Part shown: one piece after another, positions 9,110 to 63,216 of the stretch
Position numbering within the stretch: position 1 is the stretch's first letter
Layout of the letters: every line of letters starts with the position of its first letter
Assembly (NCBI GenBank): GCA_964016885.1
Contig: OZ024742.1
Coordinates: forward strand, 281,976,001 to 282,040,000
DNA: 64,000 nucleotides
Reading direction: 5' to 3'
DNA from: Eledone cirrhosa
Taxonomy: Eukaryota
Notes under the pieces: model-generated
The model's input: only the letters and a program-made list of their open reading frames with translations
What the model was told of the DNA's origin: nothing
Databases searched by the model: none
Translations under genes and position numbers: made by a program

Positions 9110-9541
9110 GGAGGAAGTTCTAGTTCACTTGAAGCATTGTGTAATGAGGTATAAAATGCTGTAGTTGTAAGGCCAAGACAATGCAGGTATGAATATAGAA
9201 TATAAATGCAAATGCAAAATATATTGTTGACAATTAGTCTTTTACCTTAAATTTATTTAAATATCCTTAATTTTCGAGATAATATCTCTTCTTCGGAGGG
9301 AAGTAAAGTGGTTAATCCAGTGTTCTAATTAGCTAGCCAAGTCAGCATGACTTGGCAAGCTAATTAGAACACTGGATTAACCACTTTACTTCCCTCCGAA
9401 GAAGAGATATTATCTCGAAAATTAAGGATATTTAAATAAATTTAAGGTAAAAGACTAATTGTCAACAATATATTTTGCATTTGCATTTATATTCTATATT
9501 CATACCTGCATTGTCTTGGCCTTACAACTACAAACGTTTAT
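9110..9541. mobile_element. Fold-back non-autonomous PLE derivative (arms about 190 bp plus 40 bp tail)
   Basis: 9161-9344 is the reverse complement of 9348-9531, centre 9346. HHR-like motif at 9393-9427, TA flanks. Sister copy at 27235-27499. Confidence 0.85.
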
Positions 9542-9577
9542 ATATATATATATATATATATATATATATATATATAA

Positions 9578-11170
9578 TACTTAGGTTAATAGGAGTTAAG
9601 TATTGTATACCCGTGTCCCATTAAGGTATTGGCAGCATAATAATTAGCTCTATGCTTTGGAGCAGAGCCGTATATATGAAAAAGAACACAAGCCACGTGG
9701 CATGGTCCATTGTTTATCTGTGCGGTCATGGGCGTTTGTTTTTGACACCACAGCAGATGCACAAGTTCGTAAATTCCAATGCAGATAGAAATCTATTTTT
9801 GCTCACCCGGACATTGACGGAGGATCCAATATTCCTAGTTCAATATGTGTTTGGTGTTATTTTGGTCGCACAAATCAATCACTTGGTTCAATATTATGGA
9901 ATATGGTTTTCTGGTCTTCGTAACAGTGTCAGTGGTTGTATATCTGGAAATCACAAGGATCACAGTACTCCGGTTTGTTGTGATTATCGGTCATCCAGCT
10001 ATGTTGTTGGTGGTTGGATTCAATTCTATTCGCCCGAACGTTGAACTTTGGTGTCGATAGGACATTAACGAGGCAGGGTGAGGTCGCATCTGTGGTACAA
10101 AACGGTACGCAAGGAAATTCTTCGTCTTCGTTTCATCCGGGTCCAGCAGTCACGTGCAAGAACCGCTACGTAGTAATTGTGGGGTTAATCGGTCAAGTCA
10201 GCAACTGACCGAAAATTCAGGCAGGCATGACAGGCACATTTAGGTCGGCAGCTTCTTTATGTGTACGTGTGTCCGGAATTTACGAACTTGTACATCTGCT
10301 GTGGTGTCAAAAACAAACACCCATGACCGCACAGATAAACATTGGACCATGCCACGTGGCTTGAACCCGTAAGTGAATTGAAGGTTCTGCAACTCTGATA
10401 CACAGATTATTTATTATTAAGATGTATAAACTTGACATAACTATTATCATATTATATTCTCTCAACTAATCACACTTGATCATATTTCTCTATCCCGTTT
10501 TCTCCCCCCATAATTATTATATTTTTATTATTATTTGAAAAAATCGGCTTTTTACATTGTGTTTTCCCCTCCAAATATTCGCTTATATTTCTTTATATAT
10601 TCTCTATATATTTTTTTATCTTTATTTATTATTATTTTTTTATCTTTATTATTTCCACTTTTATCCTCCTTTATATTTTACCTTATTCTTACTTTTATAC
10701 CTTATTATAGTGTAATCTTCCCCATGCCTCATTATACACTATTAATTATAGATTATTATTATTACTCTTTTTCCATTTCTAATTACCTCATGTACTTTCT
10801 CCTCCGCTATATATATATATATTGTATGCCCTTTGTGTTTGTGTAGCCTTTGCGCACCCTCTGCACCATACTATCGACGCCACCCCATCTATGGTTCAGC
10901 TAACCACCCGACTCCCGGGAATGAATATGACCGCAGTTAGTAAACAAGGACCCACACCCCACCCTCCCGCACCAAAATTAGAGTTATCGTCCCCTACGTT
11001 TTCTCTTTACTCTCTTTACACTTTGTTCTTGAATGTTTGGTTGGTAGAGTCCATAACACCAATCAAACCCCTTTTATAGCTCTGACGAATCCTACGGTTA
11101 CGTAAGGAAGAAACATTGTAAGCCAATAAAAATCTTTTGATGTTGTAGACGCTCTTGTGTTCTTTTTCTT
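9578..11170. mobile_element. Composite PLE-derived insertion with an internal 90-bp inverted repeat and a 3' pLTR
   Basis: 9688-9777 inverted to 10275-10363. tatatgaaaaagaacacaag (9673) is inverted to cttgtgttctttttcttata (11154). HHR at 11079-11123, (TA)n on both sides. Confidence 0.6.
11079..11123 (+). ncRNA. Minimal type I hammerhead
   Basis: GCU CUGACGA A UCCUACG GUUA CGUAAGGA A GAAAC AUU GUA AGC. Confidence 0.75.
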
Positions 11171-12989
11171 ATATATATATATATATATATATATATATAT
11201 ATATATATATATATATATATATATATACACACACACAATGATATTAAATAAATGGAAACTATATTTATAAAACCATATTTATTTTATTATATATATTTCA
11301 AGGGTACCAAGACAACAAACATTTATATTTGTCGGACTTCCAACAAACTACATACCCCCTATATATATATATATATATATATATATATATATATATATAT
11401 ATATATATATATATATATATATATATATATATATATATATAAATCAATTTGAATGAATTAAAAACCTGTTTAGACCATTACTCACCAGAATACTCGATAC
11501 TTGGGGCAGTAGAATGTGGTAAAATGAAAGTTGAAGATTAAAAAATAACAAAAACACAGAAATACAGTTACACAAAGTTTTATGAGTTACATGCTTTTGG
11601 AAAAGGAAAATGAGTGCCTCAGCGTATCCGACGTTAGTCCTTCATCAGGAAGAGAAAAGTAGGGAGAATGAGGAGCATCGAAGGGAGAGGGGGGGAGGTA
11701 AACATTAAAATAGTGTTACCAGAATGGGTTACATGGGCAGATAAGTAATCAAGTGTGCGTGATGTTTCAACTTCGCATTTGAAAAGAGGGTTATAGCCCT
11801 GAAATATCCTGCTAAAATACACTGGGTAAAAGATTACTTTGTTTTACTTTGTTTTATTTGTCATTTTTAACCCTTCGTATTCACTACCGCATTGTATCGG
11901 CTTAAAGAAAAAAGAGTTATCGGTATTTTATTACACACACACACATACACACACATATATAATATATATATATATATATATATATACTCATACACACTCA
12001 CACCTTCTCTCATCATCTAGATACACTGAAGGTACGTGTGAAATATGACGAATTATATATATTTCCTGATGATGATGATGATGTTTGCTGTTGTAGTTAT
12101 GGTATTGATGAAGATGATGATGATATTTCTGGTGTTTGGTGGTAACGGCAGTTGTGTTGTTGATGACGATGATGACTATCACAATAAATAAATAAATAAA
12201 TAAATAAATAAATAAATAAAAATGTATATTTTGGCTGTATGATTGAACGACCATGAGTTAATTCGTTTAGAAATAATTTTCATATATCGAGGTAATCTTT
12301 AGGACAGCCATATTCAATAACGTTAATAAGATAATTCGTTGAAATTATTAATTAATTGCTTGCACAGGGGTGTTAACCGAACACGTTTATCAACTAAAAG
12401 ACGGGCATACAGACAGACAGACTGACAGCTGAAGAACTAGAGTGGTGGTGAGAGAGAGAAGGAAGGGTGAGAGAGAGCTATGTCTCTTGTCAATATAGGG
12501 TGAGTAAATAATAGCATTCACATACACACACACTCACACACACACACACAGAAACACACACACAGACGCGCGCGCACACACACACACACACACACAAACA
12601 CACACACTTACAAACACACGCATACACAAACGCACACACACGCACACAGGCACACACATACCAACACACGCAGACACAAACACATATGCATGCACGTTTT
12701 ACACGGTGGCACCAGAAGTAAACTGCCAACAACGAAGACATGAAATAAGGTTGAACTCTAGCAGGTAATGTGACCATGTACACTCCCGCTGTCATCGTCT
12801 TGTTGTTTGTGGTGGAGTTGTTATGGTTCTTGCTAGGTATGGGAAGAGATATAAAAAGACTGTGCATATTTGACACGGTAATTGAGGTCACTTTGTTCAG
12901 AACCACTAGGATATGATCCGAACGTGGAAAAGCCGAACTCCCAGTCATCGTCTCCATCTCTGTCGCCATCCCCATATCTCCGTATGGTG

Positions 12990-13205
12990 AGCAAATGGGG
13001 TCCTACGTGCTGGCCTCCCACAGCGGACAGAATGGAGAAGGCGTTTCCCCGGAGGATGGTAAGGGAGATGCGCTGGAAGAGCCATTCCAACTCGCAAGGC
13101 TCACATCTGCGGCTGGCCAGCTCAGCGCCTATGGTGGTGAGTAGGGAGCTAGCCCTAGGGCCAAGGACACCAGAAGTCTCCACTGCCAAGGGCACGACCG
13201 CACGA
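12990..13205 (-). mobile_element. CRE-clade non-LTR retrotransposon, C-terminal RLE fragment
   Basis: PLAVETSGVLG..LFQRISLTILRGNAFSIL motif. Second copy at 42225-42490. Confidence 0.7.
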
Positions 13206-61991: not shown

Positions 61992-62256
61992 GAGGTTAAC
62001 CACTTATACTATAATACGGACTAGAATGTACCTGTGCTGCAAAGGGCCAGTCTTTCATTACTAATCATGCAAAATATCCCTGTACATTTGTCTGAGGAAT
62101 GTTAGAGACACTTGCACTTTAATCTCACAAGCAGACAGTTATATTGATTGAATAACTTGAATGCTCATCGTCGAAACAGACGGAGATTTATCCCGGACAA
62201 TAAGTCGGGTCTCAAAACAAGTCTCGTTCCGGATGAATACATACATAGACTTGTAT

Positions 62257-62419
62257 TGCAGCAGCAGCACTAGCAGCAGCAGCAGCAGCAGCAGTAGTAG
62301 TAGTAGTAGTAGTAGTAGTAGTAGTAGTAGTAGTAGTAGTAGTAGTAGTAGTAGTAGTAGCAGCAGCAGCAGCAGTAGTAGTAGTAGTAGTAGTAGTAGT
62401 AGTAGTAGTAGTAGTAGTA
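62257..62419. repeat. Compound (CAG)n/(TAG)n microsatellite
   Basis: Direct reading. Confidence 0.95.
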
Positions 62420-63010
62420 ACACTCATCACTGAAAGCGACGGAAGTCCATTCGATTCCATTTCAGCCTCTTGGGAAATGTTTTCTTTTTTTTGTTAATAG
62501 CCTTTGTCCAGACATAGAGAACTACACTTACGACCTTGAAGGTCCTTCTAACGCTTCTTAGATCGATGGCTAACCCACGAAAAGAAACATGACTCCAGTT
62601 GATATCTTTCATTTCCTTACTTTGTTTACTTTCAGGTCAAATAGGTTAAGTTGTATCCGACCACAAAATGTTGTGTTACAGTGAAAATAGTGGAATGTTT
62701 CTGTAACCAATAGGTGGTATACGTTTAACAGTAGCTGCCACCAGGCATACAATAAACATACTTTCCAAACACTCTTATAAACTATTTACATATACTCCAC
62801 ACACATATGGGGGTTTTATTTTTATTTTGTTCTACCTATACTTCATTCTTCATTCACTAATTTTGAATGAATGAAATATATGTGTTTGTGTGTGTTTGTT
62901 TGTGTTTGTCTGTGTGTGTGTATTTGTGTACACATACACCACACAGACATATGTGTATATGTATCTATGTATATATATATATATATATATATATATATAT
63001 ATATATATAT

Positions 63011-63216
63011 ATAGGAACCAGTAAGACCCCCACGGCTGAGCTCAAGCCGTTTCGACGGCTAATTCTGGACTAAAATTAGTCCAGAATTAGCCGTCGAAAC
63101 GGCTTGAGCTCAGCCGTCGGGGTCTTACTGGTTCCTATTACCCACTCTACTACCCAAAGTATTGAGTACTTTGGTGCGTTATGGTCCACCTGGTTCCTTA
63201 CCACATTCCCTTCGTT
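63011..63216 (+). mobile_element. Family H fold-back copy (most complete)
   Basis: Near-perfect hairpin 63011-63138, centre 63074-63075, plus tail 63139-63216. Confidence 0.87.

Follow-up and report, generated by a model that had tools for sequence, protein, structure and literature searches.

A 64,000-nt stretch of the Eledone cirrhosa genome (the window) contains hairpin-shaped repeats in TA microsatellites, and this architecture recurs across the genome sample examined. An earlier note on this DNA listed such repeats, family H among them. The positions of all listed elements are confirmed; each is an inverted repeat flanked by (TA)n, one arm of which carries a unique tail, and the junctions quoted (..ataacaATAT, ..gttccTAT, ..caaacgttTATA and ..gatcttATAT) are correct. 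The listed repeats represent eight lineages rather than nine, since those at 27531 and 34271 are of the same family (P2), which is ~71 % identical to the one at 21060 (P1). The start given as 54355 was corrected; this tail is ~100 nt and begins near 54320. A near-full-length Penelope-like element (PLE) at the start of the window (P0) had been overlooked.

Table 1. Repeats and PLE-derived features in the window.
Feature	Position	Strand	Remarks
P0, near-full-length Hydra-type PLE	1..4170	+	RWI, DKT and CxCX5C motifs
P0 inverted arm	to 559		Tail-less end ~270 nt ahead of window
P0 internal tail copy	730-822		Precedes ORF
P0 ORF pieces	883-1602 and 1686-2540		
P0 3′ end	4170		Hammerhead motif; tailed end
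Family A palindrome	9110..9541		Tail 9110-9149 (~40 nt); tail-less end at TATA; pivot ~9341-9344
Family B palindrome	20835..21033		Right side: type I hammerhead motif and ~72-nt tail
P1, head-to-head PLE	21060..24552		Two arms meeting at ~22611-22616
P1 tail	21060..21114	-	55 nt
P1 tailed arm	21060-22616		Carries ORF end on minus
P1 tail-less arm	22611-24552		The longer arm; ORF 22610-24022 on plus
Second family A copy	27235..27499		Tailed arm, short fold-back only
P2, head-to-head PLE	27531..30328		Tail ~57 nt; tailed arm to 29379; inverted 51-nt piece 29376-29426; tail-less arm 29423-30328
Family H copies	32153..32351; 32741..32922; 33638..33827; 46033..46233; 54823..54993		
Family E palindrome	33889..34254		Tail ~33 nt and TAGA stretch; hammerhead motif; tailed arm ends at family hotspot q231, with TATAAAAG 31 nt upstream and ACAGTT at pivot
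Short P2 palindrome	34271..34878		Tail ~57 nt; type I hammerhead motif ~34667-34711 on tail-less arm
Family F	36453..36650		Tail ~37 nt; end of ~530-bp tandem non-coding unit
Family G palindrome	37320..37748		88-nt tail; hammerhead motif ~37640-37710
Family I	54320..54774		Tail-less end at TATATAT; end of ~660-bp tandem non-coding unit
Family H copy	63014..63217		122-bp hairpin and 81-nt tail

The suggestion that the repeats are PLE products, not MITEs of a DNA transposon, is supported by ORF links. Longer copies of the repeats at 21060, 27531/34271, 9110, 33891 and 37321, and of family H, run into RT and GIY-YIG ORFs. The proposed connection of each family to an autonomous PLE was established for six of the nine listed repeats, while those at 20835, 36453 and 54355 showed no linked ORF in the loci examined. 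Families A and E are the 3′ ends of RT and GIY-YIG PLEs, family G is the 3′ end of a Hydra-type PLE related to P0, and the H copy at 63014..63217 corresponds to the last ~143 nt of an autonomous Hydra-type PLE. Full P1 ORFs (1,029-1,203 aa) were present in 7 of 39 loci retrieved, and the autonomous H copy has an open frame of 771 residues with DKT, RWR and CxCX5C. Pfam matches were obtained for family A (L382; RVT_1, E 1.6e-9; GIY-YIG, E 0.0018, below the curated cut-off) and family E (L384; GIY-YIG, E 2.4e-6; RVT_1, E 1.7e-6, below the curated cut-off), with weak RVT_1 and GIY-YIG matches for the P1 and P2 fragments of the window. The full P1 and H proteins have no Pfam match and show YVDD/YRDD and GIY-YIG-type motifs. 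Three features of EN+ PLEs are present: a single ORF with RT and, at the C-terminus, a GIY-YIG endonuclease; a pLTR from partial tandem, with the tail repeated before the ORF (P1 L243, P0 730-822, H L019 and L381; in the P1 tandem copies the tail sequence continues there as CGCCGC-TAT-GGC); and an inverted 5′-truncated copy with a tail at one end (39 out of 40 two-armed insertions).

Clade calls were based on motifs. H and G/P0 are assigned to the Hydra clade, for which RWK-like and DKT motifs, a CxCX5C linker, no CCHH, and late CxxC and CxH are given in the portion of the source covered here (PMC8557442); they agree on every motif criterion, with RLRWR, SDKTG, CNCPDRSIC, CNLC and CKH in H, and LRWI, SDKTN, CNCPVRTKC, CNLC and CLH in P0/G. 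P1, P2, E and A appear to be of Neptune/Nematis type, that is, with a CX2-5CxxC linker and two Cys inside the GIY-YIG (CCHH), by motifs that cannot split Neptune from Nematis; P1 (CTNRKCIIC; RCTEGTC) and E (CNDSRCGTC; CIKCPNC) fit, and the linker of A is reduced. The tailed/tail-less architecture is, as proposed, common to several PLE lineages, Hydra-type and Neptune/Nematis-type.

Families B, F and I look, by architecture, like PLE-like non-autonomous elements. A search for a linked autonomous ORF covered 30 loci of B, 25 of F and 25 of I as well as nine long-B loci and found none; one GIY-YIG piece on the opposite strand at L394 is absent from the other loci. The tail hairpin of B resembles those of H and G. 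In P2, E, G, P0 and B our own descriptor picks out a putative type I hammerhead motif, which it did not report in any of 200-300 shuffles or on the antisense strand; it found none in P1, A, H, F and I. Among the 150 of 272 Rfam matches listed for the window, all are to hairpins or microsatellites and below threshold, and none is a hammerhead. Animal non-LTR retrozymes (bioRxiv 10.64898/2026.07.22.740005) are non-autonomous, pLTR-derived and often tandem units, which the type I hammerhead motif of B and the tandems formed by F, I and one H locus resemble; they differ in that no hammerhead was found here in F or I, and inverted tailed/tail-less pairs are not described in the portion of that preprint covered here. 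The H, F and I arrays consist of single-orientation units between one tail-less and one tailed end. First-look candidates numbered 2,316 for H and 1,268 for B. Six blocks totalling 600 kb, which were not sampled at random, contain 30 family H loci, roughly 1e5 copies per genome if this density holds.

Tail-less ends are fixed per family and, as claimed, placed at TA mimics. A mimic of 3-7 nt was found in 12 of 15 lineages (eight from the window and seven from a de novo inverted-repeat scan of 600 kb), against 1.7-3.4 expected, a count reached in 0 of 200,000 random draws. Among the window lineages, seven of eight have a TA-compatible overlap of at least 3 nt (1.0-1.9 expected for random cut sites; P = 2.6e-4 if the best phase is taken, and 0 of 200,000 draws if the phase is random). 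Family B is the exception, its usual end being AAAACT with a 1 nt overlap; an inner ATATA is used in 5 of 30 copies. The mimic does not mark the tail-less end alone: tailed ends also lie at TA mimics of 2-5 nt in the five families in which template beyond the tail was seen (P1, H, G/P0, I and F). Tails range from 33 to 100 nt across families. The de novo scan gave 230 rows, noisy with simple repeats, and 66 after filters (34 asymmetric, 27 symmetric, one intermediate, and four with microsatellite tails dropped); most of the symmetric rows, some of which were checked, seem to be TA runs inside larger repeats. An empty-paralogue search with 175 elements gave one usable site, which is paralogous, and no empty site was visible in four public runs mapped on 19500-31000, where reads were swamped by other copies. 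Target-site duplications are masked here by the (TA)n context, whereas those of 8-10 bp are visible in Adineta vaga (PMC3846280).

With tail-free queries, 39 of 40 two-armed insertions combine a tailed and a tail-less arm (P1 19/19, P2 16/17, long-H 4/4; P = 3.7e-11, given that independent choice would yield at most 50 %), as do all 30 B and all 30 H insertions found with tailed queries. The copy samples were the best 40 candidates per search, and the searches favoured copies of at least query length. Two tailed and tailed insertions were found (A L154/L167; P2 L194/L195, the latter also with a common flank), and 17 of 40 P1 sites have only one arm in the stretch examined. Most of the hairpin repeats are cut-short PLE ends, in which a tailed arm is almost always paired with a tail-less one.

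The lengths of the two arms are uncoupled. Among 22 young P1 insertions, 11 have a longer tail-less arm and the other 11 a longer tailed arm; for 16 P2 insertions the tailed arm is longer in eight, the tail-less in seven, and there is one tie. Correlation between arms is weak (P1, rho 0.35, P 0.12; P2, rho 0.32, P 0.22), arms span from <10 bp to 13 kb, and pivots are free. In several insertions the tailed arm ends in or just past the tail: L236, of 99-100 % family identity and without arm overlap (59 vs 420 nt), L187 (45 vs 487), L139 (53 vs 157) and an H copy (49 vs 139). Some copies with the longer tail-less arm could derive from later deletion or spacer inversion, however spacer inversion as the sole cause is ruled out because no-overlap copies exist. 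Fifteen of 21 P1 junctions were resolved: seven microhomologies of 1-4 nt, one blunt, and seven insertions of 1-14 nt. P1 arms diverge by 0.0019 within one insertion and 0.0047 between insertions, and 28 variants private to a single insertion are present in both of its arms, therefore the arms probably come from one template; gene conversion or a common source locus could be an alternative origin of these variants. P2 arms are no closer within insertions than between them (0.0096 vs 0.0084).

MITE-size palindromes pivot ~30 nt downstream of a TATA-like box in E, H and B. In family B the distance is 30 nt in longer copies, in family E 22 of 36 arm ends fall in a hotspot at q226-235, and in the H copy at 63014..63217 TATTTAAATA lies 30 nt upstream of the hairpin centre, TTAGT. 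The pivots of A, G and P2 showed no TATA box. At the E, H and B pivots it is therefore likely that both cDNAs run off the predicted transcript start. Hammerhead cleavage was rejected as the pivot, as the positions differ (E q159 vs 231; P2 q231 vs 321-360).

The best fit, with a probability of roughly 0.65, is that two separately primed cDNAs are made on the element RNA and joined head to head. The enzyme of the element would cut both strands in (TA)n and each DNA end would prime its own cDNA, one from the outer end of the tail and the other from the fixed TA-like motif 35-100 nt inward; the TA ends left by the cut may pair with UA motifs of the RNA. A pair of RT sites, perhaps in a dimer as modelled for the anole enzyme, would copy the same template, each cDNA would stop independently, and the two 3′ ends would be joined by end-joining. 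Priming on a signal copy near the transcript start would let both cDNAs run off the 5′ end after 60-300 nt, giving uniform MITE-size palindromes made anew at each insertion. B, F and I, which have no ORF, would borrow the same PLE machinery. The inner TA, taken in the earlier note for a resolution site, is better read as a second priming site. This mechanism is read from end products, with no intermediate among the observations. In LINE-1 twin priming, two target ends also prime on the element RNA and junctions carry short microhomology or added bases; there the position of the second site varies and the pieces meet end to end, whereas the PLE insertions have two fixed sites and pieces with overlaps that reach kilobases.

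A close biochemical parallel is PAc, a Poseidon PLE of Anolis carolinensis (Frangieh et al., 2024, PMC11167929), which in vitro cuts and extends both strands from two internal RT start sites bracketing the tail, itself at the pLTR-ORF junction, and is modelled as a dimer. The PAc start sites have no homology to the cut DNA, and neither site is preferred by one of the strands, whereas here, in most lineages, the start sites resemble the TA target and every insertion uses each of them once. Given these non-homologous sites and the 1 nt overlap of family B, pairing may not set the start site. Head-to-head copies are not derived from two-ended priming in the portion of that study covered here, and its enzyme work leaves the one-of-each arm rule unexplained.

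More tentatively, and with rather poor odds, several PLE clades may be two-headed on one RNA: (TA)n ends would pair with two fixed UA motifs, a dimeric RT would copy the template twice in opposite genomic directions, with arms of up to 13 kb that span repeated units, and the UA motif would also lengthen the flanking (TA)n in a telomerase-like manner.

It is unlikely that both ends are primed at the tail and one tail is then lost, through the endonuclease or a later microhomology deletion between (TA)n and inner TA. Such loss accounts for the TA overlap at the tail-less end and for free arm lengths, and the two tailed and tailed copies agree with it; however, random later deletion predicts many like-like pairs where all but one of 40 are mixed, the family B tail would have been lost at a site with 1 nt overlap, and in vitro measurements show RT to start at two sites that flank the tail (PMC11167929).

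Less likely again is the snap-back of the earlier note, in which a tail-primed cDNA folds and copies itself and is resolved at the inner TA, either through microhomology or because the endonuclease cuts again. In its favour, many of the short copies are almost perfect palindromes, P1 arms hold the same private variants, self-priming was put forward to account for inverted PLE junctions (PMC3846280), and the tail has been ascribed to EN-mediated resolution (PMC8557442). A snap-back needs a tailed arm at least as long as the tail-less arm, however, and it is not supported because the tail-less arm is longer in half of the P1 copies (and in 7 of 16 in P2) and because young copies such as L236 have no arm overlap, with nothing to fold back on. 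Bases are inserted at 7 of 15 resolved junctions, and the near-equal short arms are explained by a common RNA 5′ end. In a 27-kb array no private change of one arm is mirrored in the other, which is weak evidence as these changes may postdate insertion.

There is little to favour a self-propagating palindrome, a SINE-like PLE derivative whose master is transcribed whole and retrotransposed as one cDNA. The narrow size range and very high copy number of H and B, and the lack of ORFs in B, F and I, are in keeping with it; against it, pivots and centres differ between copies (25 different centre strings), subfamily variants are symmetric across both arms, short H and B copies have no upstream TATA box, and the single-orientation H, F and I arrays are bounded by a tail-less end on one side and a tailed end on the other.

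It is very unlikely that the repeats are DNA-transposase MITEs or elements of the Helentron/HINE type, whose inverted repeats are asymmetric: short non-coding inverted repeats in TA context look MITE-like and B, F and I have no ORF, but ORF links refute this identity for P1, P2, A, E, G and H, B has the hammerhead motif and an H- and G-like tail hairpin, and symmetric TIRs matching a transposase, the finding that by the earlier note's own account would speak against PLEs, were not seen, with ends asymmetric in 39/40, arm length free and no transposase-length ORF in longer relatives within the stretches examined. Helentrons and HINEs have short fixed subterminal asymmetric repeats, a 3′ hairpin and a TT target, whereas here the arms extend as far as a free pivot and (TA)n is the target.

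Earlier publications already describe the tail, the inverted copy and TA targeting, as well as two RT start sites; a literature search found none of the strict pairing rule, the TA-mimic start sites or the promoter pivot in print. For the canonical EN+ PLE unit (Craig, Yushenova, Rodriguez and Arkhipova, 2021, PMC8557442), tails of 30-40 nt are given, compared to 33-100 nt here, and the tail is ascribed to EN-mediated resolution, in contrast to the near-strict pairing, two-end TA mimics and uncoupled arms observed here; inverted structures, one-sided tails and microsatellite bias are listed there as open questions. Hydra clade PLEs (PMC8557442) share with H and G/P0 the motif set and (TA)n insertion, and with G/P0 a hammerhead, which our descriptor does not find in H; a very abundant 200-bp palindromic by-product, as in H, is not described for that clade in the portion covered here. 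Adineta vaga Penelope (Arkhipova et al., 2013, PMC3846280) also has head-to-head inverted pLTRs, an optional 31-bp tail, junction palindromes and Asn-rich ORF inserts, the last also found in P1, but its copy number is low and self-priming on an antisense template was proposed.

The counted rule of mixed arms, free lengths and fixed TA-like starts separates the proposed models of PLE insertion, and the genome supplies young open-frame elements that could be assayed directly. In annotation, a pipeline would probably label as MITEs many short inverted repeats that are in fact by-products of retroelements and abundant here, and the hairpins may be a large source of double-stranded RNA. If the two-headed reading is true, ~100,000 MITE-like hairpins would have been seeded from the first 140 nt of one transcript, and, with telomerase-like extension, the element would grow its own target.

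The inverted repeats in (TA)n listed by an earlier note were all confirmed, with the described tail asymmetry and junctions, in this window (C3:281,976,001–282,040,000 of a 3.0-Gb animal assembly), throughout which (TA)n is dense. One arm is tailed and the other tail-less, the two meeting head to head at a pivot; positions are given as q, the distance in nucleotides from the outer end of the tail. Since the repeats at 27531 and 34271 form one family, P2, with ~71 % identity to P1, the window contains eight lineages (P1/P2, A, B, E, F, G, I, and H). An additional member, P0, a near-full-length Hydra-type Penelope-like element (PLE) related to family G, has an inverted arm that begins before the window; outside that arm, P0 is interrupted by an insertion of another repeat.

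The feature is real and of PLE origin, as the earlier note had proposed. The link of each family to an autonomous PLE, which that note named as a check, was found for P1, P2, A, E, G, and H, in which longer copies reach reverse transcriptase (RT) and/or GIY-YIG ORFs, and not for B, F, and I, in which no ORF was found. Longer copies of A and of E reach RT and GIY-YIG ORFs, those of G (L123 and L130) extend into a GIY-YIG ORF, and those of P2 lead into a P1-like ORF; among 39 P1 loci, seven have open frames, of 1,029–1,203 aa. Close to its N-terminus the P1 ORF (L208) contains an extended Asn-rich insertion, a feature also described in the Penelope elements of Adineta. Family H was at first the strongest MITE candidate, all 30 of the 30 best matches being 200-bp hairpin-plus-tail units; by way of copies carrying more 5′ sequence, loci were reached that contain an open frame of 771 residues, and H is the final ~143 nt of an autonomous element. 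Under the motif criteria given in PMC8557442, H and G/P0 are Hydra-type and P1/P2 and E probably Neptune/Nematis-type, and family A has a reduced linker. In family B a tail occurs together with a hammerhead motif and a TATA box, but an ORF was sought in its loci and not found; F and I are tandem units of ~530 and ~660 bp, both without an ORF. A further copy of the tail stands directly before the ORF, an arrangement shared with known PLEs.

Repeat families and other features. Locations are window coordinates (family starts for P1 to I) unless a locus or contig is named; mimics at tailed ends are descriptive and given where the template is readable.
Feature	Location	Tail-less end	Minor tail-less sites	TA overlap at tail-less end (nt)	TA mimic at tailed end	Arm-end cluster
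P1	21060	q56	q63	4 (P1/P2)	TAT and TA	
P2	27531; 34271	q58		4 (P1/P2)		q321–360
A	9110	q41	q66	4		q225–260
B	20835	q73	q75–80	1		~q140
E	33891	q34	q77 and q102	5		q226–235
F	36453	q38–42		4	ATAT	
G	37321	q89/92		3	AT or TA (G/P0)	~q258–262
H		q82		3	TAT	~q140
I	54355	q64		7	TATAT	
P0	1–4170 with the L244 end; from ~270 nt before window				AT or TA (G/P0)	
Repeat inserted in P0	649–736					
Two further GIY-YIG remnants	5612–6755 (minus)					
89-bp inverted repeats	9689–10363					
51-nt piece at P2 junction	29376–29426					
LINE-type elements	38825–42162; 57462–59833					
~420-bp repeat	G000:C15:25,081,000–25,085,300; many loci; copy near 35340					
Nests of PLE families	20835–24552; 33638–34878; L019; L244					
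P1 ORF with Asn-rich insert	L208:3114–6722					
Tandem H units	L019:1500–2350					
27.3-kb P1 insertion	G000:C6:30,043,476–30,070,762 (L065–L068)					
B copy in host TA run	L273 (~1480–1740)					

Several other repeats were observed. Two more GIY-YIG remnants derive from Hydra-like PLEs, and two decayed LINE-type elements have Pfam matches to the endonuclease/exonuclease/phosphatase domain (E = 2.3e-5) and RVT_1 (E = 3e-18). The 89-bp inverted repeats (97 % identity), without long flanking TA runs, are a candidate true MITE. An abundant ~420-bp repeat with TA-rich ends and the core GTACGTATGGATTCACCG occurs in symmetric-looking tandem and inverted arrays, and is possibly of a different class.

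Tail-less ends are fixed per family, and the proposal that they lie at TA mimics of the target was borne out: the overlap is at least 3 nt in seven of the eight window lineages, against 1.0–1.9 expected (P = 2.6e-4, best phase). A de novo scan across six blocks of 100 kb added seven lineages, five of them single copies and putative PLEs only; with these, a mimic is present in 12 of 15, against 1.7–3.4 expected. In B the usual tail-less end overlaps by 1 nt, which shows that the geometry of the RNA is able to determine the site with no need for pairing. A hairpin of the form ACTC...GAGT, directly past the tail-less site, is common to H, B, and G.

Pairing of one tailed with one tail-less arm is nearly strict. 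Of 40 P1 sites, 22 are complete two-armed insertions (19 found with a tail-free query), all with one arm of each kind; 17 have one arm and one ran off the stretch. Tail-free queries gave 16 mixed pairs and one double-tailed copy among 30 P2 loci and mixed pairs in 4/4 long H, so that pooled (P1 19, P2 17, long H 4) 39 of 40 are mixed. With tailed queries the pairs were mixed in 30/30 B, 9/9 G, and 15 A (one at q66), with one double-tailed A, and a tail-less partner was present in 11/11 E. Two arms were found in 15 of 40 H loci from the six blocks and the window, none of them double-tailed or double tail-less.

The best model, to which we give a probability of about two in three, is two-ended target-primed reverse transcription from two fixed sites. 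Target ends would prime RT on element RNA, one at each site, and the two cDNAs would then be joined; each start site would be used once per event, a single template would serve both primers, and TA pairing would aid priming in TA-targeting lineages. The scheme builds on steps measured for the anole enzyme, with extension of both strands, two start sites, and a dimer as a model (PMC11167929); single use of each site, the shared template, and help from TA pairing are inferred additions to these. The P1 junctions are end-joining-like (of 21, 15 were resolved: seven with microhomology, one blunt, and seven with insertions). The two arms of P1 copies have private variants in common, 28 lying in both arms and 42 in one; those of P2 do not, with 2 and 34, respectively. 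The 51-nt inverted piece at a P2 junction, which starts at the stop point of the tailed arm, results either from a same-RNA template jump or from an 880-bp deletion that came later and left this stretch behind.

Priming of both ends at the tail, followed by trimming of one tail, is unlikely, as it requires an unexplained rule for trimming exactly one side. The earlier note had a single tail-primed cDNA snap back, with the other end resolved at an internal TA mimic; this step is wrong in all probability, because arm lengths are free. The tailed arm is longer in 11 P1 copies and the tail-less arm in 11 (8 and 7, respectively, in P2), one copy (L236) pairs a 59-nt tailed arm with a 420-nt tail-less arm at 99–100 % identity, and tailed arms stop within the tail in L187, L139, and several H copies. 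Self-propagating palindromes are very improbable, and DNA transposons still more so, both being contradicted by free pivots and the ORF links.

Tandem and nested structures also occur. The 27.3-kb P1 insertion runs from a tail-less end through 3.3 tandem units, a head-to-head junction, and 3.2 units to a tailed end, with at most two changes in each of six full units and none mirrored across the arms; it points to a template that was either circular or copied several times over, although the structure may be an assembly artefact. Three tandem 253-bp H units joined at TTTT, each of which begins at the predicted start and extends past the tail to the first ORF codons, are either a mini-circle or a template-jump product. 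In nests, different PLE families lie side by side in one TA run. A B copy within the internal TA run of another repeat has 21 + 41 nt of TA (62), against ~10–18 nt in the empty host-repeat paralogues listed; this single case, a hint of TA growth, would fit addition at insertion as well as slippage afterwards or the use of an allele that was already long.

Tandem copies, inverted truncated copies, one-sided tails, and TA bias have been described as a unit in PMC8557442 and PMC3846280, as have two RT start sites in PMC11167929. The literature searched (older subscription papers, Repbase, and supplements being outside its scope) made no mention of near-strict pairing combined with arms of free length, of TA mimics at the two start sites in different clades, of a pivot at the promoter position, or of a highly abundant palindrome derived from a Hydra-type element. 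Penelope and MITE families are both listed in a paper on octopus repeats (PMC13282606), in the available portion of which no link between palindromes and PLEs is made.

Arm ends are clustered, in E at 22 of 36 ends among copies of at least cluster length, which the queries favoured. A TATA-like box lies ~30 nt upstream of the pivot in E, H, and B, with ACAGTT at the pivot in E and TTAGT in H; none was seen at this distance in A, G, or P2, and P2 has AAAATGGCG immediately inside the pivot. A hammerhead cut was rejected as the pivot, being 70–130 nt off in E and P2. The D. virilis Penelope promoter likewise lies at the terminal repeat (pLTR), but is TATA-less (PMC2377424). The pivot would be the 5′ end of the RNA, where both cDNAs run off. 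The palindrome centre differs from copy to copy, which fits fresh formation at every insertion, and clustering of pivots at the predicted transcript start may explain why short copies resemble MITEs.
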